NCBI GenBank assembly: GCA_964016885.1
Contig: OZ024742.1
Span: forward strand, 54,498,001 to 54,562,000
Direction of reading: 5' to 3'
DNA length: 64,000 nt
Source of the DNA: Eledone cirrhosa
Taxonomy: Eukaryota
How positions within the stretch are numbered: the first letter of the stretch is position 1; every line of letters starts with the position of its first letter. The notes beneath the pieces are model-generated. The model saw nothing but the letters and a program-made list of their open reading frames with translations, did not search any database and had not been told where the DNA came from. The position numbers were made by a program, and so were the translations under genes. This document shows, one piece after another, positions 17,259 through 56,146 of this stretch.

Positions 17259-17581
17259 CATATCCAGTGCTTTTATCGAGCAATGACACAGCTAGAGACT
17301 TATAGAATACTTAGCTGTGTACAGGAACTGGTTTGAAAGAGCGGTTGCCGGTCCGGCAGAAATTAGAAATTGGAATAAATGCTCTGAAATAGCGATATAT
17401 ATGAATGAAACGCGTAGATTACTTCCCTTGCTTTTATCGAGAATCTAATTGTAATACGTGACGTATTCTATTCTATAGCGATTAGGTCTTCAAAATGTTT
17501 ATTATAAACATACAGAATATTTTCGAATATTCTATGTCTATATTCACATATATATCGCTATTTCAGAGCATTTATTCCAAT
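17259..17581. mobile_element. Truncated head-to-head insertion of family E (310-bp element)
   Basis: 17259-17400 and 17403-17581 match opposite strands of the 33191-34131 unit; the second piece starts inside the HHR. Confidence 0.85.
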
Positions 17582-18112: not shown

Positions 18113-19767
18113 TTTCGTTTCTGAATTTGTTTAGCAAGATTCTTTATCTGAAATCGTGTGTTGAAACCGATATTGTTATACTTTGGGAGGGTCATGTTGC
18201 CAATAAGAAACACACGCACCAGTTGCTTTCACTTCAATTTAATTTAATATATATTTATAAATTTACAAATTTATAAATTTCTGGTTGGTTGGTTGGTTCC
18301 ACAACCAGATAGTTGTTTATATATATATAGTCATAGTTCTTTCGTCACACACTCTGTGACCTCTTCAGTGACTGGGGATTTCTTTCTTCGTTTCTGTGCC
18401 TTTCCTTTCTTCTATCCTACGCCATTTTGTTTGTGTGTGGGTTGCGTGCTCAGTTTGCGCATGCGCCACATCCGGGTGTCTGTGTGTGTTTGTGTTCATT
18501 TTTCTATTTTTCTATTTATATTTGTTTGTTTATTTATTTATTGTTGGTTGGTTGTTTGTTCTATGTGTGTGTGTGTTTTCATTTTGTCTTGTGTGTGTTT
18601 TCATTTTGTGTGTGTTTTCAATTGTAAGTTGTTTGTTCTATGTGTGTGTGTGTTTTCATTTTGTCCTTAATTGTAAGTTGTGATGTTGCTGTTCCACTCA
18701 TATTTTCTATTTAATTTTGGTTTTAATTCTTTTATGCTTACTGCCTCTGTAATTTGCCTAAACATTGCGTCTTTCTTGTGTGTGGATTCTATTTTTATTT
18801 CTATGCTCTCTAATTTACCCCTGTGTTCTATCTTAGCATGTTGGTAGAGCACAGATGATTCTTTACTATCTTGGAGGTCTCGCCAGTGTTCATTTATTCG
18901 TTCCCCTATACTACGAGCTGTCTCACCTATGTACACTATATTTTTGTTTCTACATTGTCCTTCAGTACATCTTATGCTATATACTACATTTCTAGTTTTA
19001 CAGTTAATATGGGGGCTTATTTTACAGGTTATACATTTCTTATCTATACATGAGGGTCTTTGGAACGGGTATGTCTTGCTAATAAGTGTTTTTACGGAGG
19101 TACCAGGTCTTTCTACTATCTTAATATTGAGATTATGTTTCTTTAGGGCCCTTCTAAATTTGTAGGCTAGTTCGCCTCTAGGGGTTGTATTGATGAACAT
19201 TACACTCTGGTATTTATTGCTATCATACCATGAGTTTATTCTATTGGCCTTGTTCTTAGTTCTTTCTATTCTATTCCAAAATTTGCTCCTATACAAGGGG
19301 CAGGTCCCATTTATGTCATTATTTACCATTTTTTCCCATTTGGTTCTGGCTCCTTTATACACTCTGATTCTATCTCTCTGATTGTAGCCAGAGAACTGCA
19401 TACGGTGGATGAAGTGTTGTATGTGTCTCTCTAGTTCTTCGGGGTTGCACATGCGGGACACATTTCTCATCACCCGTACCAAATCCGCAATCAGTATGTT
19501 GATTTTGGTATGGTCCGAAATGGCCGAGTTTCGGTGGATCAGATGTTTGGAAGTCATGGGTTTGGCATAATGGGAATGGAGGATTTGTTTTTGGTTGTTA
19601 ATAGTATCTAACCAGAGCTCTGTGTCTAGTACAGGTAATCGATGGTTGGGGTGTCTACTTGGGTAGTCTATAGTAACTCTAATGCTCTGGTGGATGGAGT
19701 TTGCTATTTGCTGGATGCTTTCCATTGTGTTTTTCTCTGGTTCCTGACTGTTCTTTAGTGGGGGTGT
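18113..19767 (-). mobile_element. Inverted 5'-truncated copy (RT thumb, GIY-YIG, pLTR) of the adjacent Nematis-like PLE
   Basis: Reverse complement of ~22735-24329 plus tail; ORF 18667-19833 matches the C-terminus from TPPLKN onward; HHR 18329-18373. Confidence 0.95.
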
Positions 19768-19900: not shown

Positions 19901-20009
19901 ATATATATATAAACAACTATCTGGTTGTGGAACCAACCAACCAACCAGAAATTTATAAATTTGTAAATTTATAAATATATATTAAATTAAATTGAAGTGA
20001 AAGCAACTG

Positions 20010-23000
20010 GTGCGTGTGTTTCTTATTGGCAACATGACCCTCCCAAAGTATAACAATATCGGTTTCAACACACGATTTCAGATAAAGAATCTTGCTAAAC
20101 AAATTCAGAAACGAAATATCGTAAGCCTTAGCCAGGCTAACAAGATACTGAAAACCACCATGTTCTGTTGTCTACGAAAAACCATAACATCTCGACAACT
20201 ACACTTCATAAAACTGTGCACCACTTCTAGAATCTACACCAACACCATCAATACCGACGTTAGAAGATTACAACTCACCAAAAAACAAGCAGATAGGTTA
20301 AAACGAACTTTAATTCTAAACATAAAAAAGAAGATCTATAGAGAATTAAGTCATCAAGAAAAACTAAAGCGTAATCTAATAGATGAAATATCTAAAATCA
20401 CCACACCAGCAGAAAAACTAACATTTATAAGCCTTATACGACCCGAAGAACAGTACATTACTCAAGAATGTAATAAGCACTTTAACAGAAAATTAAAGTG
20501 GCTTAAACAGGCAAAGCTAAATCGGGATACTATAGAGTATACCAATAGATATCCCGACAAAATTGACGGTATCAACATGGCCGACACCTCATTATCTGAA
20601 GAGTTCAACAATGAAAATACCAACATTTATGGAAACACGGAAATAGATAATAATGAAATGTCTGTGTTACGTCTGCCACCCAAATTTGCGACATTCAAGA
20701 AGGTAAATATGATTAGTTGTCTGTCAGAAATAGAAAAATCATTTACGAAACTACGCTGGAGCATCAAAAACAAAAACAAAAGCAACAATATACGCACACA
20801 CATATACAACACACATCCCAACAACAACAGACACACAGACACAAACAACAATAACAACAACAATAGCAACATACCCAGATACAACACCAACAATAGCAAC
20901 ATACCCAGATACAACAGACACGCAGACACAAACAACAATAACAACACACACGGAGACAACAATAACAACAACACACACATCAACAACAACAGCAACATAC
21001 CCAGATACAACAACAACAGACACGCAAACACAAACAACAATAACAACACACACAACAACGATAACACACACACACACGGAGACAACAACACACATCAACA
21101 ACAACACACATCAACAACAACAACACACACACATTCAATGCCTCTCACCACCACTACAATCTTAACAAACACACAGACACAGAAAACAAGTAATGACAGT
21201 AGCACAGAAATCAGAGAAATAAGAGAAAGTAATAGGATTAAAAGGAGAAGGGAGACTAAGGACAAAGAGAATAACCAAGACGAACACACAGACACACAAA
21301 ATAGGGTAGATAACAACATTGAGCCAGTGGAAAGAGACAGGAGTAATTATGAGAGACATAGAAACAACCATGAAGCTGAGGCTGCTGCTGTTGGTGGAAA
21401 TAGAAACAACACAACTAACAATAGCACTAGTACACATAAAGCAGCAGCCTGGAACTCTCCGTTTTATAACCCCTCCGATAAATCATTCGACCTACGACGA
21501 GTCCACGCCACGACTTTGCCATTTAACAAACGCACGCAGTTGCCGTCGCAGGTCGATGAACAAACAGAAGCACAATTTAGTATAGCTAAATCCGAACTTA
21601 GAAATATTATAGAACAGTATAGCAAGAAGCATAATAGAATAGAGGCCCAGCAACTGGGAGAAGAATCTGCAAATGGCTTGCGTAAGCTCATGCAGCGCTC
21701 ACGTAATGGAGAGATAGCATGCTTTCCAACAGACAAGTCTGGCAGAATGTCGGTTGACAGCCTGCCAAACTACATCCAGGCAATGCAACCCCACATCACT
21801 AACACAAGAGAGGTAACACCACAGGAGCATGAGGATAGAGAAAAAACCCTCAATGCCCATATGGTGATGTGGACAAATATAATGCAGCCCAACAAAAGGA
21901 CTGCCAACAACTTCCAGGCCTGGAACAATGACGTGCCGGCGTTGTATGGGCTTCGAAAAGACCATAAAACGGGCTGGGACCCTGTCGCGGGACCACCAAC
22001 ACGGCCAGTCTGTGGGGCTAACATTGCTAGTAACTACAGACTGTCCTACTTCCTCTCCCTGATCATACGCCCCATCATTGAGATGTCCCCAGATGTGTGT
22101 GACAGCACGGAGGACCTCCTCAGCAGAATCGGCGCGGGTAACCGATCTGGGGACCTAACAAACTGCATAATAGGCAGTATGGATGTTGTGTCCCTGTATC
22201 CATCTATTGACGTGGATTTTGCTGTGGAGAAATGCGTCGAAATGATCAGCGAGAGCAAGGTTGAGTTCCGTGGGATTGATACCAGTGAGCTGGGACTTCT
22301 ACTTAAGCTTACCCATAGTAATAGTTACCTAGACACTTATGACCTTAGCAACCTGTGCCCTACAAGACCAGCAAGAGGCAGACCACCTACCATTACCTCA
22401 ATGGCCAAGAAAACCCACACATATAGATGGAACGGGTGGACCAGAGCCATACGGACACCCGAAAACCACGATGAACTGAAGAAAATGATTGCACATGCGG
22501 TAGGGGCCAGCATAAAATTAACCCTTAAGGAACATATGTTCAAATTTAATGGTAAAACATATGCCCAAGAGGAAGGAGCAGCCATTGGTGTTAGCATTGC
22601 AGGCGACATAGCTAACTTGTTCATGGTATGGTGGGACAGTAGACTTAAACAAAAACTTAATGAACAATTAGAAGACAGCTTAACCCTGATAATGTACTCC
22701 CGCTACGTAGATGATATAAACATCGTAGTTAAGACACCCCCACTAAAGAACAGTCAGGAACCAGAGAAAAACACAATGGAAAGCATCCAGCAAATAGCAA
22801 ACTCCATCCACCAGAGCATTAGAGTTACTATAGACTACCCAAGTAGACACCCCAACCATCGATTACCTGTACTAGACACAGAGCTCTGGTTAGATACTAT
22901 TAACAACCAAAAACAAATCCTCCATTCCCATTATGCCAAACCCATGACTTCCAAACATCTGATCCACCGAAACTCGGCCATTTCGGACCATACCAAAATC

Positions 23001-23834
23001 AACATACTGATTGCGGATTTGGTACGGGTGATGAGAAATGTGTCCCGCATGTGCAACCCCGAAGAACTAGAGAGACACATACAACACTTCATCCACCGTA
23101 TGCAGTTCTCTGGCTACAATCAGAGAGATAGAATCAGAGTGTATAAAGGAGCCAGAACCAAATGGGAAAAAATGGTAAATAATGACATAAATGGGACCTG
23201 CCCCTTGTATAGGAGCAAATTTTGGAATAGAATAGAAAGAACTAAGAACAAGGCCAATAGAATAAACTCATGGTATGATAGCAATAAATACCAGAGTGTA
23301 ATGTTCATCAATACAACCCCTAGAGGCGAACTAGCCTACAAATTTAGAAGGGCCCTAAAGAAACATAATCTCAATATTAAGATAGTAGAAAGACCTGGTA
23401 CCTCCGTAAAAACACTTATTAGCAAGACATACCCGTTCCAAAGACCCTCATGTATAGATAAGAAATGTATAACCTGTAAAATAAGCCCCCATATTAACTG
23501 TAAAACTAGAAATGTAGTATATAGCATAAGATGTACTGAAGGACAATGTAGAAACAAAAATATAGTGTACATAGGTGAGACAGCTCGTAGTATAGGGGAA
23601 CGAATAAATGAACACTGGCGAGACCTCCAAGATAGTAAAGAATCATCTGTGCTCTACCAACATGCTAAGATAGAACACAGGGGTAAATTAGAGAGCATAG
23701 AAATAAAAATAGAATCCACACACAAGAAAGACGCAATGTTTAGGCAAATTACAGAGGCAGTAAGCATAAAAGAATTAAAACCAAAATTAAATAGAAAATA
23801 TGAGTGGAACAGCAACATCACAACTTACAATTAA
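20010..23834 (+). CDS. Intact PLE polyprotein (RT + GIY-YIG), first ATG at 20034
   Basis: TDKSG, LYGLRKDHK, TRPV, MDVVSLYP, GAAIG, RYVDD, LPVLD, CIDKKCITC, VVYSIRC...YIGET...ER..EH; clade assignment is from recalled motifs. Confidence 0.96.
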   Translation: MRVFLIGNMTLPKYNNIGFNTRFQIKNLAKQIQKRNIVSLSQANKILKTTMFCCLRKTITSRQLHFIKLCTTSRIYTNTINTDVRRLQLTKKQADRLKRTLILNIKKKIYRELSHQEKLKRNLIDEISKITTPAEKLTFISLIRPEEQYITQECNKHFNRKLKWLKQAKLNRDTIEYTNRYPDKIDGINMADTSLSEEFNNENTNIYGNTEIDNNEMSVLRLPPKFATFKKVNMISCLSEIEKSFTKLRWSIKNKNKSNNIRTHIYNTHPNNNRHTDTNNNNNNNSNIPRYNTNNSNIPRYNRHADTNNNNNTHGDNNNNNTHINNNSNIPRYNNNRHANTNNNNNTHNNDNTHTHGDNNTHQQQHTSTTTTHTHSMPLTTTTILTNTQTQKTSNDSSTEIREIRESNRIKRRRETKDKENNQDEHTDTQNRVDNNIEPVERDRSNYERHRNNHEAEAAAVGGNRNNTTNNSTSTHKAAAWNSPFYNPSDKSFDLRRVHATTLPFNKRTQLPSQVDEQTEAQFSIAKSELRNIIEQYSKKHNRIEAQQLGEESANGLRKLMQRSRNGEIACFPTDKSGRMSVDSLPNYIQAMQPHITNTREVTPQEHEDREKTLNAHMVMWTNIMQPNKRTANNFQAWNNDVPALYGLRKDHKTGWDPVAGPPTRPVCGANIASNYRLSYFLSLIIRPIIEMSPDVCDSTEDLLSRIGAGNRSGDLTNCIIGSMDVVSLYPSIDVDFAVEKCVEMISESKVEFRGIDTSELGLLLKLTHSNSYLDTYDLSNLCPTRPARGRPPTITSMAKKTHTYRWNGWTRAIRTPENHDELKKMIAHAVGASIKLTLKEHMFKFNGKTYAQEEGAAIGVSIAGDIANLFMVWWDSRLKQKLNEQLEDSLTLIMYSRYVDDINIVVKTPPLKNSQEPEKNTMESIQQIANSIHQSIRVTIDYPSRHPNHRLPVLDTELWLDTINNQKQILHSHYAKPMTSKHLIHRNSAISDHTKINILIADLVRVMRNVSRMCNPEELERHIQHFIHRMQFSGYNQRDRIRVYKGARTKWEKMVNNDINGTCPLYRSKFWNRIERTKNKANRINSWYDSNKYQSVMFINTTPRGELAYKFRRALKKHNLNIKIVERPGTSVKTLISKTYPFQRPSCIDKKCITCKISPHINCKTRNVVYSIRCTEGQCRNKNIVYIGETARSIGERINEHWRDLQDSKESSVLYQHAKIEHRGKLESIEIKIESTHKKDAMFRQITEAVSIKELKPKLNRKYEWNSNITTYN

Positions 23835-25537: not shown

Positions 25538-28500
25538 TCAGGATTTGGGCACCATGGCCCATTCGAGAAGAGAATTACTGTTTGCGGAGACATATCCGTG
25601 TGTGGGTGGTTTGTCCGGGATTACTTGGAGGAATTTGTCCAAAGACTTCTTGAATTTTGTGTGGTCAGTTTCTGTTTAGACGTGTCCTGGTGTGATGTTG
25701 AAGAGAGCAGGGCCGATTGAGGTGAAATAATTGTGCCGTATTGTTGTTATGAGTTGCGATTTAGATTTTTGAATGGGACGGATTGCACGGGGCCCAAGCC
25801 TTGGGTGTATCTTGAAGGCGATGCCAACATCATTTGGGCAGTGATGATGGAACATTTTCCACATCATGCAGATAATATAACGCTCACGGCGACGTTGGAG
25901 TGAGTAAAGTTTCAGGTTTTCTAATCGACCCCAGTAGTCAAAGTCTGACATGCCATCTATATTTTTCGTGATTGCCCTTTGAGGAGCTTCAAGTTTCATG
26001 ATACTTTGTTTCGTGTGGGGAGACCACAGTGGACAACAGTATTCAAGGTGTGGTCGGGCAAAAGTAGAGAAGAGAAGGATAATGGTGCGGGAATCTCTCG
26101 ACTGGAAGGTTCTGAGGATCCAGGAACACATTCTGCGGGCCATGTCAACTTTGCTGCTTATATGAGTGGTCCAGCTAATGTTGCTGTCCACGGTTACTCC
26201 CAAGTCTCTGATGTTGTTAGATGCCACGAGAGTTTCCCCGGAGGGAAGGGAGTACGGGAGTTTCAGAGCATCCTCTTTTCCAAAGTGGATTAGTTCGAAT
26301 TTGTCTTCGTTCAGTAACATGTTGTTCTTTTCTGCCCATTGGGTAACAGCCAGTAGGTCTGACTGAAGGCTTATCCGGTCATCCACGCCATTGATGACCT
26401 TTTGGAGCTTGGAATCATCAGCGAAAATTTTAATGTTGCTGTGTTTGATGATGTCAGTGATGTCATTAATATAGATGATGAAGAGAAGTGGGCCCAACAC
26501 AGTGCCTTGTGGGACCCCACTACTGACTTTGGCTGGGCTTGATTTGACTCCCTCAACTACAACATGTTGGGTTCTGTTTGACAGGAAGCTCTTGATCCAC
26601 TGCAGCAGCTTTCCAGTGACACCAATATTGGACAGCTTTCTCAGTAGAATGTTATGATCAACCCTGTCAAAGGCCTTGCTGAAATCAAGGTAGATAACAT
26701 CAGTGTTGGAACCCTCTCCCAAGGCTCTCAAAATGTCATCAAAGTGATGCAGTAGCTGCGTCAGGCAATCCCTTCCATTACGGAATCCATGCTGGTTGGA
26801 GTTCAGCATATTGTTACTCTCAAGGAAGTGGGTCATTCGCGATCTCACCACTCTCTCAAATACCTTAATGATATGAGAGGTGAGTGAGATTGGACGGTAA
26901 TTCACGGCAAGGGATTTGTTTCCCTTTTTGAAAATTGGGACAACAGACTGGGATAGAAGGTTTTCAGGCACATATCCAGCATCCAGTGAGTTCCGCCACA
27001 GATTGGCAAGAGGAGATGCAAGTTGGTGTTGACACGCCTTCAAGACACAAGCAGGGAACCTATCGGGACCTACTGCTCAATTATGCTTGATTTCTTTTAT
27101 TGCCGCCAAGACATCAGGGGCGCCAAACGTTATGTCCGATAAGGTGTAATGGGGAGTAACATCGCCGATACAGCCCAGATCGGCCATATCAGGATTGCTG
27201 AAAACAGAGCAGTATTGTTTCTGCAGTATCTCACCCATGGTTTTAGCATTGTCTTGAAGAGTGCCATTTTCATCAATTAGAGGGCCAACAGTAGAGCCAG
27301 TGATTTTGTGTTTTTTTGCAAATGAAAAGAACACTTTGGGATTGAGTTTGATCTTCTCAATGGCCCAGGCCTCTTCAGCTCTTCTCTGATTGTTGATGAG
27401 GGACATTATGTTGTTTTGGAGGTTATGCTTTTTAATCTCTAGTGATGAAATGGCAGTCAAGTTGATGTGTTGCTGCTGACAGTATTTCAGCTTGTTGATT
27501 TTTTTTGTTCGTTCTCTTAATTTTTCTGATGAGCGTTTTTCTATTTCTAGGGATTCTGCTCTTAGATTTGTTTATAGTTCTTAATGGTGTGTGTTTAGCA
27601 CATATGTTTGTAACAGTGTCCACAAATGTCTGCCAGGACTTTTTGATGTTAGTGGGTGTATGAGTGTGCGTGAAGGACCAGTCGACATGTGCAAGATCAT
27701 GACTGATCGCTTCCCAGTTTGCATTGTGGAAATCCATAGCGTCAAACGGATGGACAGGAGAGATGACATTGGGTTTGTATATTGGACGGTGGAATCTCAG
27801 ATCACAGAGAACCATGTCATGATCAGAGAGTAGAGTTTTCTCCACTGCAATATTGTGGATATTGTCAGTGTGATTGCTGAAAATTAAGTCTAGGACGTTT
27901 TTGTGGCACCTCGTTGGTTCGAGCACCAGTTGGGATAGGAAGAAATCATCCATGAAGTCAAGAAGCGATTCCACAGCTTCCCTGTCAGAGGTTGAGGCAG
28001 AAGAACCTGGTGGCAGGCTGTTTGTGGACCAGTCAACTCCGGGGAGGTTGAAGTCCCCCATCATTAAGATGTTGTCAGGGTGACACTCTTGGATGAAACA
28101 CTTTATGCTGCTGAGGCATTCCTTGAAGCATGGTACAGGCGTTTGGGGTGGCCTATAGAGCCCAACTACTAATAGGTTGTTGGTTTGACTGAATACAGTG
28201 ACTGCTTCACAGTATCCATTAGAGAATATGTTCATAGCCTCTGTTGAGAAAGAATTATGGACATAAATGGCAGTTCCGCCCTTTCTTCTGCCAGCGCGAT
28301 CAGCACGGATGGCTTTGAAATTTTTCACTTTCACCTCGGCTTCCAAGTGGAGGTTACTGAGATGGGTTTCAGTGAGGACGAAGAAAGGGATGTGGTTTGG
28401 ATGGACATCAATCCAGTCCTCCAGGAATTTGATCTTCCATTTTTGAGTATTGGTGGAAGGGCTGATGCCTTGGGCGTTAAGCAAAAATGTAGAGGCGAGA

Positions 28501-28658
28501 GTGGATGGTTTTAATTGTTTTGGTGTGTTGTTAATTTGTTTGTTTGTTAATGGCAGCAATGGGAGTTTGTGCAGTGGGGAGATAGTGGAGGGTGGTGCTG
28601 GGTGATAGCTCGAATGTTTTTTTCCAGTTCTTTTGCCAGATTCATTATGGCTAAAAAA
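25538..28658 (-). pseudogene. LINE ORF2 (AP endonuclease + RT); frameshift near 27490 and stops at 27077 and 25676
   Basis: LNAQG, LTETHL, YRPP, GDFN, LDLIF, SDH; [36 protein letters not shown]. Confidence 0.93.
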
Positions 28659-29310
28659 GAGGAAGAAGTTTCCTGTTTAGAAGACTGTTGGTGACTGTGG
28701 TAGTGGTTATTTTTATGTAGGTTATGGTTTTTGTTTTTGCTTTTATTTTTAATTTTATTTTCATTTGTCCGACGGGTCCCCGGGAGATGGGTAAAGGGAC
28801 AATCCCGGTCTAAACACAATCTGTCTCGCAGGGAAAAGCGGCAGATTTGTGGATTCCTTGTTTGAGTTATTGGTGGTTGTGTTGGTGTTAAATTAGAGTA
28901 TGTATTATGGTGGTGGCTGTTTGTGGGGATAGATCGTTTTGTCCTAGGTAAATGGGTGAATTTGCAGCCACTATCCGTACATATTCTATAGCGTAGAGAG
29001 TAGCGGCAAATGATGGGGTTTCGAGTGGGTGGGTATGTGGGTGTGTGTGTTGTGAGAGGTGTAGATGATGGTTTGGGTAGGATTTGACGAATTTGTGGAC
29101 TGTGGGAGGGAGAGTTCTTGTTTTGGCATTAGAAGGTAAATTCCTTGACATAGCAGTAGACAAAAATGTTGTAGTAGTAGTAGTAGTAGTAGGCAGAGAT
29201 GTTGGCAGTGGTGATGATTGGACTGCTGGGCCAGAGAAAGGATATGGCGTTTCATGCTGTGAGACAGAGGCTACTGGGGGGTCAATAGTTTCATTTAGTA
29301 GATCGGCCAT
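28547..29310 (-). pseudogene. LINE ORF1 with two CCCH zinc fingers; one frameshift, probably near the (CA)n at ~29040
   Basis: Manual translation gives CRYSLRYRICTDSGCKFTH and CRFSLRDRLCLDRDCPFTH (C-x8-C-x4-C-x3-H). Confidence 0.7.
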
Positions 29311-29393
29311 TGTTGATGAATCAAGGAGTGGTTCACACTGTTGTTGTCGTTGTTGTTGTTGTTGATGTTGTTGATGTTGTTGTTGTAGCTGTT

Positions 29394-31747
<2,354 letters not shown>

Positions 31748-33118
31748 TATAAGATCAAAAGATGGTTAAAGGAGTTCCATATATTTTATTATGCGCATTT
31801 CAAAAACAAACATCATCAAGCAATAATATTTGTGTTTTCATCAGATAAAACAGGAGAACATGATATGAAGGTTAAAAAACACTTGTTGATAGTGCAGTTT
31901 TAAATCAACATATGAAAAGTGGTTTTAGATTGATGTGTGATATTGGGAAAAATATTTTATTTAGAGAGGGGGGGGAAAGGATGAGAAGGGAAGGAGATGA
32001 GAGGGAGAGATGGGTGATAGAGAGAAAGAGATAGTTTTTATAACTGAGAGGAGATATATTTTTTATATAGAGGGGTTGAAAACCGTTGGAAGATACTGTA
32101 TAAATTAAAAATTTTGAAAATTAACGAAGGGGGGATATGTGCGAGGAAAAAATATTTTATTTAGGGAGGGGGGGTGGAAAGGAAGAAAAAAAAGGGGGAG
32201 GAGATGAGAGTGAAGGTGGAGAGGGAGAGATGGGTGATAGAGAGAAAGAGATAGTTTTTATAACTGAGAAAAAGATATATTGTTTTAATATAGAGAGGTT
32301 GGGAACCGTTGGAAGATAATGTATAAATTAAAGGAATTTAAAAATTAACGAAGGGAAATTATGTATGAAGATAGAGAGAAAAAAATAATAATTGTGGGTG
32401 AATATTCTAACGTCAAAAGAAGAAATGTATGTATTGTGGCAATTTCAAAATTAGCAAAGAGAGGAATGTTAAGGTTTATGTGTAGAAGGATTTGAGAAAA
32501 ATAATGTGAAGTTAAAGTTTGTATATTGAATTCATATGTATTAATAATGAGTTCGTTTTTTTTTTTTTGTTTTTTTTTTGTTTTCATCCTTCCCCCCCCC
32601 CCCCTCCCTAAATAAAATATTTTTTCATCGCACATATCCCCCCTTCGTTAATTTTCAAAATTTTAAATTTATACAGTATCTTCCAACGGTTTTCAACCCC
32701 TCTATATAAAAAATATATCTCCTCTCAGTTATTAAAACTATCTCTTTCTCTCTATCACCCATCTCTCCCTCTCATCTCCTTGCCTTCTCATCCTTTCCCC
32801 CCCCCCTCTCTAAATAAAATATTTTTCCCAATATCACACATCAATCTAAAACCACTTTTCATATGTTGATTTAAAACTGCACTATCAACGAGTGTTTTTT
32901 AGCCTTCATATCATGTTCTCCTGTTTTATCTGATGAAAACACAAATATTATTGCTTGATGATGTTTGTTTTTGAAATGCGCATAATAAAATATATGGAAC
33001 TCCTTTAACCATCTTTTTGATCTTATATTATGCATACTCCAGTCCCACAAACTGTAGAGTGCTTCTTATCCGATATCTGCATTGCTTTATTGTACTACAA
33101 TAAAACTCACCTCCTACA
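31748..33118. mobile_element. Head-to-head pair of Hydra-like 1 3' UTR/pLTR fragments around a T-rich spacer
   Basis: 31748-32555 (minus) and ~32580-33118 (plus) match 54830-55572; HHRs at 31784-31850 and 32924-32990. Confidence 0.88.
32924..32990 (+). ncRNA. HHR of the Hydra-like 1 pLTR (copy 55473-55539 has U16.1>C)
   Basis: TTTTAT-CTGATGA-long AT-rich stem II-GAAA-TGCGCA-TA-ATAAAA. Confidence 0.8.
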
Positions 33119-33148
33119 TATATGTATGTATATATATATTTATATATG

Positions 33149-33188
<40 letters not shown>

Positions 33189-33190
33189 TA

Positions 33191-34131
33191 TTGGAATAAA
33201 TGCTCTGAAATAGCGATATATATGTGAATATAGACATAGAATATTCGAAAATATTCTGTATGTTTATAATAAACATTTTGAAGACCTAATCGCTATATAA
33301 TAGAATACGTCACGTATTACAATTAGATTCTCGATAAAAGCAAGGGAAGTAATCTACGCGTTTCATTCTTATTAGAAATCTTCAGGATTACATATCCAGT
33401 GCTTTTATCGAGAATGACACAGCTAGAGACTTATAGAATACTTAGCTGTGTACAGGAACTGGTTTGAAAGAGCGGTTGCCGGTCCGGCAGAAATTAGAAA
33501 TTGGAATAAATGCTCTGAAATAGCGATATATATGTGAATATAGACATAGAATATTCGAAAATATTCTGTATGTTTATAATAAACAGTTCCTGTACACAGC
33601 TAAGTATTCTATAAGTCTCTAGCTGTGTCATTCTCGATAAAAGCACTGGATATGTAATCCTGAAGATTTCTAATAAGAATGAAAAGCGTAGATTACTTCC
33701 CTTGCTTTTATCGAGAATCTAATTGTAATACGTGACGTATTCTATTATATAGCGATTAGGTCTTCAAAATGTTTATTATAAACATACAGAATATTTTCGA
33801 ATATTCTATGTCTATATTCACATATATATCGCTATTTCAGAGCATTTATTCCAATTTCTAATTTCTGCCGGACCGGCAACCGCTCTTTCAAACCAGTTCC
33901 TGTACACAGCTAAGTATTCTATAAGTCTCTAGCTGTGTCATTCTCGATAAAAGCACTGGATATGTAATCCTGAAGATTTCTAATAAGAATGAAACGCGTA
34001 GATTACTTCCCTTGCTTTTATCGAGAATCTAATTGTAATACGTGACGTATTCTATTATATAGCGATTAGGTCTTCAAAATGTTTATTATAAACATACAGA
34101 ATATTTTCTAATATTCTATGTCTATATTCAC
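33191..34131. mobile_element. Retrozyme-like family E: 310-bp monomer, tandem plus inverted array
   Basis: Period 310 (33191/33501; 33654/33964); orientation switches at ~33585. Confidence 0.9.
33964..34006 (+). ncRNA. HHR of family E (copies 33654-33696 plus, 33349-33391 minus)
   Basis: GTAATC-CTGAAGA-TTTCT aata AGAAT-GAAA-CGCG-TA-GATTAC. Confidence 0.88.
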
Positions 34132-34200
<69 letters not shown>

Positions 34201-34205
34201 TATAA

Positions 34206-34329
<124 letters not shown>

Positions 34330-34414
34330 GTATATATATATTAATAAGAGGAATTCCAACTTTGTCTGAATTACTCGTTTTATTTACAATCCTTTAAAAC
34401 ATATATAATGGTAT

Positions 34415-35891: not shown

Positions 35892-36210
35892 GTATATATT
35901 TATGTATATATATATGTATATATATGTATATATATATATATATATGTTTATATATATGTATATATATATAGAGAGAGAGAAAGGATAAAAAGGAAGATTG
36001 ATTATTCCTTCATTGCATTTATTGATAGGTGACGCGCGTTTCGCCACTGATCAGCTCAAGGTTCGATCTATATCGATCCTACCCGACTCAATAAACGGCA
36101 GCTGGACGGACCCTCGTAAAATGCTATAAGAAAATGAAATACATGCTACGTAGTAAAGTCAGAGTTTCAAGAGTTTGACAAAATGAGTTGTTTTGATTGG
36201 TGGGGTGGAT

Positions 36211-36399
<189 letters not shown>

Positions 36400-38069: not shown

Positions 38070-39119
38070 TTATATATAGGGTTTAAAGTTTTGGAACGAG
38101 TGTCGGAAGCGGTGGTGGCAATTTGCGAACACTTCTGATTTTTTATTAAGGAGATTATGTTTAGAGAAGATGATAGTATGGGTCTCTAGTAGACAGATGT
38201 TACAAAATTTATCAGGTGGTTTGTACGATGTTGCACTACCTACCACTTCCCACTTAAGTGTATATATTTTATTTTTAGTTTTTAGATAGTGTATGTAGCT
38301 AGATAGTGAAGTGGAGTTGGCTAGACTGTGTTTTTTGAAAGAGTGGAGGTGCGAATTGTATCTAGTTTTGAAGCAGTTAGAAGTGGAGCCTATGTAGGTT
38401 TCAGAAGAGCTGTTAGTTGTGACTGTACATGAGTATATGATATCCTTGGTTAAGCATCTTTTATCTAAAGGGCAGGTTCTACTTGATCTACAGTTACAAT
38501 TACTCTGGGTGCTAGTCTGCCGGTTACTATGCTGTGTAGAAGTTTGGATGTTAGCTATAGGGTTATGGTTATGCGGGTTGTGGTACGCAGCGTTAATGTT
38601 TACACTAGTGCTATTACTATTATTTCCATTGATATTACGGTTATTTGTTATAATGTTACTTTGACTGTTATTTTGAATGTTATTTTGAAGGTTTATCGAC
38701 CGTTGTGATTTAGTTTGTTGGAAGTAAGAATTAATTTTTCTTTTATTTGTACTAGCTATGTGGTATGCTAAGTTAGGCGTAGTAGAGTATGAGATCTTAA
38801 TAGTGTTTTTGTTTAAAAGGCCGTGGTACCTGTGGCCGGATGGGAAGTGTTTATCTAGTAGTGAGAAGAAAGCCCTAGGAAGGTTGGTAGAGACGTTTAA
38901 ATTGAAAGGAGGGTTGAAAAATGTATTATTTCTTCTTCTATTTCTGTTTTACATGTCTGGTGATTTGTTTCCTTTAATGTTCCTAAGGTCATTTCTGTGG
39001 TGCGGGTTACTCTTGTTGTTACAATCCCTATTAGTGTGTGTGCAGTTGCTATTCCTATTATTAAATTTTCCCATGGACATGTTGTGTGAAATGATGTTGT
39101 AGCTATGTGTTTTTGTAGG
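38070..39119 (-). pseudogene. PLE linker + GIY-YIG C-terminus (missed by the ORF track; stop at 38949)
   Basis: Manual translation: FNPPF...NKNTIKISYSTTPNL...NCNCRSSRTCPLDKRCL..DIIYSCTV...TYIGSTSNCFKTRYNSH...CNICLLE...LLNKKSE..CHH. Confidence 0.88.
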
Positions 39120-45269
<6,150 letters not shown>

Positions 45270-46440: not shown

Positions 46441-46755
46441 GTATATATTTATGTATATATATATGTATATATATGTATATATATATATATATGTATATAT
46501 ATATGTATATATATATAGAGAGAGAAAGGATAAAAAGGAAGATTGATTATTCCTTCATTGCATTTATTGATAGGCGACGCGCGTTTCGCCACTGATCAGC
46601 TCAAGGTTCGATCTATATCGATCCTACCCGACTCAATAATCGGCAGCTGGACGGACCCTCTTAAAATGCTATAAGAAAATGAAATACATGCTATGTAGTA
46701 AAGTCAGAGTTTCAAGAGTTTGACAAAATGAGTTGTTTTGATTGGTGGGGTGGAT

Positions 46756-46832
<77 letters not shown>

Positions 46833-46837
<5 letters not shown>

Positions 46838-48335
46838 CGAAAAAACGAAGATAATTAGTCATATGTGGAGCGTGGAGAACAAAACCACGTAAATGGTATA
46901 GCAGAAATCGTAGACTAAAATTCTAACTAGGAGACCAAATGAATCTCCGCTACAGAGTTAAGAACAAAGTAAATAAATACAATACAGAAGTAATAGGAAC
47001 AAATAAATACATACACGCAAACAGATACGTACATACACAAGCATACGCAAAACCTTACCATGGGTATACAAAACCACGCACATATAAATATGTGTGTGTG
47101 TGTGTATGCTTGTGTACAAATAAATAAATAATTATATAAACGTATATAAGTAAATAAATACGTATATAACAAGCGCACACGAATACCTACATATAAATAC
47201 ACGAATGTTCGGAGACGTAACTCAACTAAAACAAGAAGTACACATATACACACGCCCACCATACGTACGAACCTGCACACTCACGCGGACGCAAAACTCC
47301 CGTATACACATAGCCAAACCCTAAATACCAGAATATGTAAAAATTATACGCTATAACAGTCAAATATACGTACGAGAAGGTATACATACCTTCACAAAAC
47401 ATACGGGTAATATATACTTACCTATGCAAATAGGTAAAGGAATAAACAAAACATATACTTAGCTCCCACATCAAGACGTAAAATATCCACGTATAGATCG
47501 TGCTATCCGTTAGGGTATAACGTGGGGCTGTAATACAGGAAGGTTTTGTGCAATTTATGTTTACAAGCCGAAATTGCCTCAGATTTTTTGTTTAAGATGT
47601 GGTCTGTAGCGTAGAATATTTCCAGGGCTTCAGCGGCGTAGAAGTCACATGGTTTTTTATTTCCGTTATACGATCTAGCCCTAACTAGGATCTCCCTGTG
47701 TAACTTATATTGGGTGTGGTTGTCTTTTAGACTCCAGATATAAGCTGAAAGTGACGTCATATTCCTTCTTAGAGGGTAACGAAAAGAATGGGTATGCATG
47801 TAAAGACGCTGCTTGAAACTATTGGCGGTTAACCCTATGTAGGCCCTACGGGACGTGGGTGTTACAACCTTACATTTGTAGACAATGTTACTAGAGAGGC
47901 ATATCCCGGATAGGGGGCAATCAGCCCGATTCCTACAATTACAGTTAGTACTAACTACAGGGTTGCACGTGTTCCTACGGCTAGGTAGTTTAGCTAAATT
48001 TGAAGCTGTGATGTTATGTGCAAGGTTCGGAGTCGTAGAGTAAGAAATTTTAATAGTATTTCTATTAAAAAATTTACCATATTTATGTGTAGGGGGAAAA
48101 TGCTTCGTAATAAGGGAAAGAAAGATCTTAGCTAATGGTGTGGCCACCTCCATATTATATGGTGGGTTAAACCAACAAATGCGACGGGATCTATTTCTTC
48201 TAGGTCTATTTTAGTACACTGTATATGCTACCTTATCGACAAATCCACTTCGAGCAAGAGCTTCATTGTAATAAGTGGAATGGTCGTTGAAAATGCGCTC
48301 GTTGGTGGAAATACGGGAAAGCCTCAACGAAAATA
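46833..48335 (-). mobile_element. Truncated Hydra-like PLE family 3 (thumb, linker, GIY-YIG, 3' UTR)
   Basis: RLSRISTNERIF..YYNEALARSGF, WFNPPY, NCNCRNRADCPLSGIC, IVYKCKV..AYIGLT; coding part 47503-48335. Confidence 0.87.
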
Positions 48336-50165: not shown

Positions 50166-50227
<62 letters not shown>

Positions 50228-50228
<1 letters not shown>

Positions 50229-51659
50229 ACTTTGAATAACTTTGAAATGTTTTGGCCAGTATTGGCCCAGGCCATGTCTAACTTAATAGCACCACCTGGC
50301 GAAGTCTTTCAATTCAGGATTTGGGCACCATGGCCCACTCGAGAAGAGAATTACTGTTTGCGGAGACATATCCGGGTGTGGGTGGTTTGTCCGGGATTAC
50401 TTGGAGGAATTTGTCCAAAGACTTCTTGAATTTTGTGTGGTCAGTTTCTGTTTTGACGTGTCCTGGTGTGATGTTGAAGAGAGCAGGGCCGATTGAGGTG
50501 AAATAATTGTGCCGTATTGTTGTTACGAGTTGCAATTTAGATTTTTGAATGGGAAGGATAGCACGGGGCCCAAGCCTTGGGTGTATCTTGAAGGCGATGC
50601 CAACATCATTTGGGCAGTGATGATGGAACATTTTCCACATCATGCAGATAATATAACGCTCACGGCGACGTTGGAGTGAGTAAAGTTTCAGGTTTTCTAG
50701 TCGACCCCAGTAGTCAAGGTCTGACATGCCATCTATATTTTTCGTGATTGCCCTTTGAGGAGCTTCAAGTTTCATGATACTTTGTTTCGTGTGGGGAGAC
50801 CACAGTGGACAACAGTATTCAAGGTGTGGTCGGGCAAAAGTAGAGAAGAGAAGGATAATGGTGTGGGAATCTCTCGACTGGAAGGTTCTGAGGATCCAGG
50901 AACACATTCTGCGGGCCATGTCAACTTTGCTGCTTATATGAGTGGTCCAGCTTATGTTGCTGTCCACGGTTACTCCCAAGTCTCTGATGTTGTTAGATGC
51001 CACGAGAGTTTCCCCGGAGGGAAGGGAGTACGGGAGTTTCAGAGCATCCTCTTTTCCAAAGTGGATCAGTTCGAATTTGTCTTCGTTCAGTAACATGTTG
51101 TTCTTTTCCGCCCATTGGGTAACAGCCAGTAGGTCTGACTGAAGGCTTATCCGGTCATCCACGCCATTGATGACCTTTTGGAGCTTGGAATCATCAGCGA
51201 AAATTTTAATGTTGCTGTGTTTGATGATGTCAGTGATGTCATTAATATAGATGATGAAGAGAAGTGGGCCCAACACAGTGCCTTGTGGGACCCCACTACT
51301 GACTTTGGCTGGGCTGGATTTGACTCCTTCAACTACAACATGTTGGGTTCTATTTGACAGGAAGCTCTTGATCCACTGCAGCAGCTTTCCAGTGACCCCA
51401 ATATTGGACAGCTTTCTCAGTAGAATGTTATGATCAACCCTGTCAAAGGCCTTGCTGAAATCAAGGTAGATAACATCAGTGTTGGAACCTTCTCCCAAGG
51501 CTCTCAAAATGTCATCAAAGTGATGCAGTAGCTGCGTCAGGCAATCCCTTCCATTACGGAATCCATGCTGGTTGGAGTTCAGCATATTGTTACTCTCAAG
51601 GAAGTGGGTCATTCGCGATCTCACCACTCTCTCAAATACCTTAATGATATGAGAGGTGA
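50228..51659 (-). mobile_element. 5'-truncated copy of the CR1/L2-group LINE (open RT frame to 50314)
   Basis: Near-identical to 25446-26883; lacks the 25676 stop; same tail. Confidence 0.93.
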
Positions 51660-52056: not shown

Positions 52057-55572
<3,516 letters not shown>

Positions 55573-55693
55573 ATATATATATATATATGTATATATATAT
55601 GTATATATATGTATATATATATGTATATACATATGTATATATATATGTATATACATATGTATATATATATGTATATATATGTATATATATATG

Positions 55694-55861: not shown

Positions 55862-56146
55862 TTTACGGTAGTGTCCAATCCTTATGAAGAACTCAATGTA
55901 ATCCGGATATCATGGAAAGAAGAGATGCATTCAAAAATCACTTTCGGTGAAAGATAAACGGAATACAGAGTCAAGATAAAATATTAAAAAAATAATGAAT
56001 AAAACAAAGAAACAGTTCCTTATATTAAACAAAAAAAGTTCATTATTTAACGATCGTTCTAGAAACGATCGTTAAATAATGAACTTTTTTGTTTAATATA
56101 AGGAACTGTTTCTTTGTTTTATTCATTATTTTTTAAATATTTTATT
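55862..56146. mobile_element. Short head-to-head insertion (palindrome ~55975-56145)
   Basis: ~85-bp arms centred on AACGATCGTTctagaAACGATCGTT. Confidence 0.65.

Follow-up and report, generated by a model that had tools for sequence, protein, structure and literature searches.

A 310-nt hammerhead repeat in the Eledone cirrhosa genome, probably a non-autonomous retrozyme with Penelope-like insertion ends

The 310-nt repeat (family E) at 33190-34139 of the window, that is, of the whole 64-kb stretch of DNA analysed here, is probably a non-autonomous non-LTR retrozyme mobilised by a Penelope-like element (PLE). In those features that can be tested in sequence it agrees with the retrozymes and not with the viroids. 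The anatomy of the insertion ends is the strongest evidence here and points to a PLE protein as the maker of the insertions. Formation of RNA circles from family E in vivo appears slightly favoured.

The original prediction described a non-coding 310-bp monomer in tandem and inverted arrangement, and this description holds. The monomer, measured from cleavage site to cleavage site, is exactly 310 nt long with 33% GC, and in a concatemer of it no ATG-started frame exceeds 30 aa and no stop-free stretch 59 aa. It is laid out in two head-to-head arms of 1.28 and 1.79 units, and a second insertion lies at about 17076-17581 of the same window. The parts of the two insertions are as follows.

33190..33585, minus strand: left arm; unit positions 80 to 310 and on to 165, 1.28 units, 0 differences; 3' end joins (TA)n
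33584..34139, plus strand: right arm; unit positions 204 to 310, a further pass to 310, and on to 139, 1.79 units, 2 differences
33584..33585, no strand: head-to-head inversion junction; 2 bases common to both arms
33691..34000, plus strand: full 310-nt monomer (predicted circle), cleavage site to cleavage site
33327..33415, minus strand: hammerhead 1 with the 16-bp closing stem; core 33385 to 33355, predicted cleavage after GUA at 33355; intact
33630..33718, plus strand: hammerhead 2; core 33660-33690; helix III palindrome disrupted by a substitution at 33685
33940..34028, plus strand: hammerhead 3; core 33970-34000, helix III palindrome ACGCGU, GUA triplet; intact
33190..33215, minus strand: PLE-type tail; unit positions 140-165, 26 nt, at one insertion end only
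33118..33190, no strand: left (TA)n target tract
34132..34341, no strand: right (TA)n target tract
17403..17581, plus strand: second insertion, right arm; unit positions 297 to 310 and on to 165, tail present, 1 difference
17076..17403, minus strand: second insertion, left arm; unit positions 131 to 310 and on to about 130-139, end approximate

The period of 310 nt is seamless and in the same phase in all four arms of the two insertions, with no ORF attached, and the arms jointly cover the whole period without leaving it. Left-arm and right-arm monomers of the locus show 0 differences, and the clean copies of family E differ at 3 sites over about 1,260 nt. The two right-arm substitutions are at 33685, in helix III of the first right-arm ribozyme, and at 34109. 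Two consecutive ribozymes are found within the right arm only, and the first of them carries the 33685 change. The unit itself contains a short TA run, and it is there (34131-34139) that the 3' end of the right arm passes into (TA)n. Both ends of this insertion are in (TA)n and therefore no target-site duplication can be read. The locus is probably a recent insertion product, rather than a source of circles.

High self-complementarity of the unit, with a hammerhead enclosed by a perfect 15-bp stem, had also been predicted. The linear sense monomer folds at -73.5 kcal/mol (z -4.8, 100 shuffles). Folding as a circle, the check named with the prediction, gave -68.8 kcal/mol (z -5.4, 100 shuffles). 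Of the nucleotides of the sense monomer 61% are paired, and the fold is branched and not rod-like. The antisense strand folds equally well or better (z -5.5 linear and -6.7 circular, 100 shuffles each). All five of the named stem and hairpin pairs are present, each as an exact reverse complement; the significance (z about -5) applies to the fold of the whole monomer and not to single hairpins of 6-9 bp. The closing stem round the hammerhead is indeed perfect, its length being 16 bp instead of 15. A perfect stem of 16 bp was seen in none of 300 shuffles of the monomer, the shuffle maximum being 14. When this stem and the ribozyme are removed, the remaining 221 nt reach only z -2.6. In a comparison with 60 shuffles each, family E gave z -6.1 and -5.75 as against -2.2 for the ORF-less family F, and six ribozyme contexts of other families (C twice, G, D, H and I) gave -0.1 to -2.5.

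A relaxed motif scan detected 22 type I hammerhead motifs in the 64-kb window. Three of these are in the family E locus, one per unit as had been claimed, and all three share the polarity of the unit. The core is kept at all three complete ribozyme positions of the locus, one of which has the helix III substitution. No antisense ribozyme motif was found in family E by the motif scan or by Rfam. Type I motifs with a helix I of at least 5 bp, on either strand, arose in 4 of 5000 dinucleotide shuffles of the monomer. Rfam reported no hammerhead or other ribozyme at the gathering threshold in the whole window, and at E up to 10 its 24 weak matches in 32800-34200 included no ribozyme and none at gathering score. 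The ribozyme call thus rests on the motif scan. The elements recognised are a helix I of 6 bp, CUGAAGA, a helix II of 4 bp over a U.U mismatch, GAAA, the palindromic ACGCGU helix III and the GUA triplet. This is the canonical metazoan type I geometry, with a palindromic helix III of 1-2 bp, as defined in PMC4209133. The motifs of the ORF-linked families C and G have a long helix II, unlike family E.

At canonical metazoan type I hammerheads, the weak helix III blocks cleavage of the monomer and a double hammerhead is needed (PMC4209133). In models, the family E ribozyme likewise looks dependent on dimers. In the circular monomer the pair probability of helix III is 0.00 and that of the active helix II 0.15-0.18; the UUUC that follows the core is predicted to pair with the catalytic GAAA as a decoy (probability 0.73-0.82). 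The decoy and the active helix II are 0.5 kcal/mol apart. An idealised dimer of 415 nt folds without constraint into a double hammerhead, with an inter-ribozyme helix III of 0.87-0.97, and two fragments in trans reach -69.9 kcal/mol against -63.8 when apart, a gain of about 6 kcal/mol. When the flanks of the idealised dimer are extended (556 nt), its double-hammerhead probability falls to 0.00. The natural right arm, with the palindrome interrupted at 33685, gives the inter-ribozyme helix III a probability of at most 0.15. Thus a design that is off in the monomer and on in the dimer is plausible, but it depends on context and is not robustly predicted. A read-through transcript of the whole locus folds as one long duplex, 90% paired, in which ribozymes 1 and 3 are buried. 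Given this double-stranded fold and the mutated ribozyme 2, the locus at 33190-34139 is an unlikely source of circles, and we would regard their formation there as improbable.

The ends of the insertions do not coincide with the cleavage site. Both insertions consist of head-to-head arms in a (TA)n target. The end positions differ between the arms, being unit position 165 for one and about 131-139 for its partner, and a tail of 26-34 nt is present on one arm only. The 3' ends are thus 131-165 nt downstream of the cleavage site. The tail measures up to 34 nt if the opposite end is taken at unit position 131; it rests on one clean and one approximate insertion, the second no-tail end being in degraded sequence. 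Among the hallmarks of PLEs are an inverted 5' copy and, at one of the ends, a tail of 30-40 bp (PMC8557442). In vitro, the PLE tail corresponds to the distance between two internal starts of reverse transcription, and insertion proceeds by nicking and extension of both target strands, for which ribozyme cleavage is unnecessary (PMC11167929). The two-end pattern is also seen at ORF-linked families of the window, at +164 and +224/231 in family C and at +41 and +135 in family G. Both arms of the ORF-less family F end at +84.

The left arm of the second insertion is nearly identical to the unit as far as unit position 270, beyond which identity is 30-90% per 20-nt bin. On the sense strand G replaces A at 15 positions, T at 14 and C at 7, and there are 19 inserted G. 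The adjoining TA tract has 20% C, against 0-2% in four other tracts. The C-rich degraded sequence (17048-17240 and 16949-17100) takes in the arm and the TA tract complementary to the opposite arm, and the onset of degradation is near the point from which the arm and its partner are complementary. Read errors occur at inverted duplications (PMC7229812), and the degraded zone is probably a read or consensus error at a hairpin. A-to-I editing by ADAR was rejected as the cause, since A, T and C alike are changed to G.

Neighbouring PLEs had been proposed as the partner of the repeat. The (TA)n target, the inversion, the tail on one arm and the internal 3' ends speak for mobilisation by a PLE; the choice of a neighbour as partner is not borne out. 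The unit showed no significant similarity to 15 segments of the window's other families; the best of these comparisons, with family F, was reached by 3 of 200 shuffles and is not significant over 15 tests. The tail length of family E matches none of the other families of the window, C and G included. As neither sequence kinship nor a matching tail was found, no partner PLE is named. An end shared by families E and C (164-165 nt past cleavage, with the same last four bases) was put down to chance, as the stretches cannot be aligned. A 24-nt pattern of family E gave no match in bacterial and archaeal genomes, as expected for an animal repeat.

About 16 kb of the window consist of (TA)n tracts lying between retroelement fragments. 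Repeats were mapped by masked self-BLAST; a generic repeat finder was swamped by (TA)n. The following PLE-type ORFs are present.

20001..23834, plus strand: PLE-type ORF, 1277 aa without a stop
56822..60547, minus strand: PLE-type ORF, a relative of the former (about 93% protein identity)
7035..10592, plus strand: PLE-type ORF in pieces, Pfam GIY-YIG
42115..45035, minus strand: PLE-type ORF
52232..54496, plus strand: PLE-type ORF

RT, linker-cysteine and GIY-YIG-type motifs are found in the PLE-type proteins of the window, and one frame, of 1277 aa, is uninterrupted. An inverted arm at 18170-19767 (1598 bp) is 100% identical to the 3' end of the PLE at 20001-23834, which indicates that this insertion is very recent. 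With its apparently intact frame, this PLE might supply active enzyme. Four of the 12 ORF pieces of the window had a Pfam match at E 0.001 (GIY-YIG, two RT, AP endonuclease), so that the PLE label given to families C and G is based on motifs together with mutual BLAST. The only PDB match of the RT-EN part of family C was a GIY-YIG intron endonuclease, and a weak one (E 0.18). A second group of PLE-type ORFs (52232-54496 on the plus strand, 47503-48210 and 38070-38948 on the minus strand) agrees at about 40% in the C-terminal domain and has no Pfam recognition at E 0.001; we take it to resemble the Hydra clade. In its pLTR copies (11463-11741, 31745-33119, 55173-55574) the tail is about 94 nt long and exceeds the 30-40 nt that is usual. 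Among the 120 matches listed for the ORF at 52232-54496 a single one bears a species name, that of Argonauta hians (38%).

Other elements of the window include a LINE at 25676-29391 (minus strand) with an AP endonuclease and RT (25676-28676) and an upstream cysteine-rich frame. Its RT is closest to one from Argonauta hians (64% identity, the best of 8000 scored candidates), and a second copy at 50227-51659 is cut off at a (TA)n tract. Together, these likenesses to an octopod make an octopod host likely. Family F (61537-63441), a tandem-plus-inverted repeat of 457-459 bp in (TA)n, has no ORF and no tail and carries four intact-looking type I hammerheads with a very long helix II, two per arm. 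On account of the two ribozymes in each arm, an active retrozyme locus is more plausible here than in family E. Family B (3937-4600 and 12060-13017) has no ORF and consists of a partial tandem repeat, about 594 bp in size, that contains an inversion, and family A (251 bp; 3619-3869, 35965-36215 and 46512-46760) occurs in three copies 96-98% identical; both lie between TA tracts, and the motif scan found no hammerhead in either. An isolated, canonical-looking type I hammerhead at 5478-5606 (plus strand; core 5521-5552, GUC triplet) forms a 129-bp island between TA tracts and is present once in the window. A near-perfect palindrome (96.5%) of 170 bp at 55976-56145, also between TA tracts, has no ribozyme motif. 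A short interspersed repeat in three copies (725-826, 1804-1905, 2424-2475) presumably resembles an octopus SINE.

For family E as a non-autonomous retrozyme the following route can be envisaged. A tandem master locus would be transcribed into a multimer, in which two hammerheads would pair via the palindromic ACGCGU helix III and, as a double hammerhead, cut after GUA. In the freed 310-nt monomer the two ends would be kept in contact by the 16-bp stem and helix I; the motifs and stems of this step are present in the sequence, and the dimer fold is predicted in some contexts only. A host ligase, by analogy with other retrozymes, would close the 310-nt circle. Folding predicts that the circle would stay uncut, having a single ribozyme, no helix III and the competing UUUC/GAAA pairing. 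A PLE RT/GIY-YIG protein would then nick both strands of a (TA)n tract, and reverse transcription would begin twice within the unit, about 131-139 nt downstream of the cleavage site and 165 nt downstream of it. Copying would continue past unit length and the two cDNAs would be joined head to head by a microhomology of 1-2 nt. The end positions, the inversion and the target of this last step are observed, the enzyme being putative. The sequence fits either of two templates for this step, the circle and a linear multimer left uncut.

If the template were the uncut multimer, the ribozyme may be a weak or protein-dependent leftover and the circle irrelevant to insertion, a variant that we hold to be a serious possibility, somewhat short of even. 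The cleavage sites are intact in all arms that span one, the decoy fold prevails in most of the modelled contexts, and PAc, a PLE, uses unprocessed RNA and has a ribozyme that needs protein (PMC11167929). Only one of nine Xenopus retrozyme dimers was cleaved in vitro, eight remaining without cleavage (bioRxiv 10.64898/2026.07.22.740005). The 16-bp stem, however, joins the two would-be ends of the monomer, and retrozymes of coral, mussel and axolotl all yielded circles (PMC7229834).

A reading of the unit as the pLTR, duplicated in tandem, of an autonomous PLE is unlikely; the ORF would lie elsewhere in the genome and the arms would be 5'-truncated copies. Every hallmark of the insertions is a PLE hallmark, most arms belonging to the window's ORF-linked families are likewise truncated ends without an ORF, and type I hammerheads are present in PLE pLTRs, where they often form pairs on opposite strands at a spacing of 100-700 bp (PMC4209133). 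This possibility had been raised with the original prediction and was checked within the window: none of the four arms reaches an ORF, and tblastn with 120 listed homologues and 11 ORF pieces of the window found no ORF remnant in family E (best E 0.16). Moreover, three of the four arms, from two insertions, cross unit positions 165/166 at the same seamless junction, which would hardly result from independent truncations; the fold is far stronger than that of the ORF-linked pLTRs of the window, and the ribozyme geometry is canonical, not minimal. The shared junction, the lack of an ORF remnant and the strong fold together favour an ORF-less master of period 310. The pLTR reading keeps some weight since the longest arm has 1.79 units and the search covered one window.

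Fold-back during amplification or assembly as the origin of the inversion, or a passive satellite as the nature of the repeat, is very improbable: both flanks are self-complementary (TA)n and the left arm of the second insertion has degradation resembling read error, but the two arms differ in the unit positions at which they begin and stop, the sequence beyond the TA tracts is not mirrored, and the same anatomy is found in the second insertion and in the ORF-linked families. Least credible is a DNA copy, captured in the genome, of a viroid-like replicon propagated by RNA-to-RNA rolling circle, which would agree with the size, the hammerhead and the strong fold on both strands, and not with the one-strand ribozyme, the three differing sites (not a quasispecies) or the PLE-type ends.

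These observations bear on how animal retrozymes return to DNA. The retrozyme class and its link to PLEs are already published, papers on animal retrozymes having named PLEs as the probable mobiliser on grounds of co-occurrence and pLTR homology. Taken by itself the repeat is unremarkable, and its value lies in the junctions: a hammerhead repeat without an ORF has, at its insertion ends, the tail from two start sites that was reproduced in vitro with purified PLE protein. The enzyme and the template (circle or linear multimer) of animal retrozymes thus become testable with a 310-nt substrate and the PLE frame at 20001-23834. Tentatively, a PLE RT may copy the 310-nt circle by rolling-circle synthesis from two fixed internal starts, with a ribozyme switch that opens only in dimers; we consider this doubtful. 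If true, the junctions would be direct genomic evidence for the still-hypothetical re-entry of circles into DNA, and the unit would be a minimal 310-nt template for a PLE enzyme with which it has no detectable sequence kinship. The predicted monomer-off, dimer-on behaviour, weak and context-dependent as it is, offers an answer to the self-cutting of circles, a question left open in PMC7229834. Family E would also be the first cephalopod retrozyme as far as the literature searched goes: neither a cephalopod retrozyme nor the use of tail junctions for retrozymes was found there, most subscription papers and supplements being outside the reach of the search.

Hammerhead viroids have ribozymes in both polarities. 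Family E shares with them, and with other viroid-like circular RNAs, the size class, the hammerhead and the branched fold. It differs from them in being genome-encoded, with two insertions in the window, and in having its type I ribozyme on one strand only. The label "viroid-like" given in the original prediction is therefore apt for size, hammerhead and strong fold; it does not extend to a genome-encoded unit with no antisense ribozyme and no sign of RNA-to-RNA copying.

Closer likenesses are found among PLEs. Family E has in common with the pLTR insertions of Neptune/Hydra-type elements (PMC8557442) and of Poseidon PAc (PMC11167929) the (TA)n target, the inverted 5' copy, the partial tandems, the one-sided tail and the internal 3' ends downstream of the ribozyme; unlike these it has no RT/GIY-YIG ORF, and it has a fixed 310-nt period and a far stronger fold. 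MRC1 and other non-autonomous elements of Chlamys are similarly ORF-less and PLE-moved, with pLTRs and head-to-tail copies, but in the description of PMC8557442 they as a rule have 3' sequence in common with a partner family and are mostly without canonical hammerheads.

Non-LTR retrozymes of 150-450 bp with type I hammerheads occur across metazoans, with units of 220-245 nt in Acropora millepora, 350-390 nt in Mytilus galloprovincialis and 330/350 nt in Ambystoma mexicanum (PMC7229834). Family E agrees with them in its short non-coding tandem unit with GC below 50%, one type I hammerhead per unit, strong self-pairing and co-occurrence with PLEs, and the ribozyme, unit length, non-coding character, GC content and fold uphold its original assignment to the animal non-LTR retrozymes. 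Most invertebrate retrozyme hammerheads are said to cleave as monomers (PMC7761336). The family E ribozyme joins both of the weak features described for the two axolotl types, the one-pair palindromic helix III and the U.U at the base of helix II. A recent preprint (bioRxiv 10.64898/2026.07.22.740005) holds that retrozymes depend on and derive from PLE pLTRs, with family lengths of 51-972 bp, and grades a retrozyme as active when two consecutive units have complete ribozymes. The words "tail", "junction", "target site" and "initiation" are absent from its main text, where the evidence is co-occurrence and pLTR homology; for family E the evidence is instead a junction signature, with no pLTR homologue found in the window. 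Compared with the known animal retrozymes, family E is distinguished by its short head-to-head insertions in (TA)n that carry a PLE tail.
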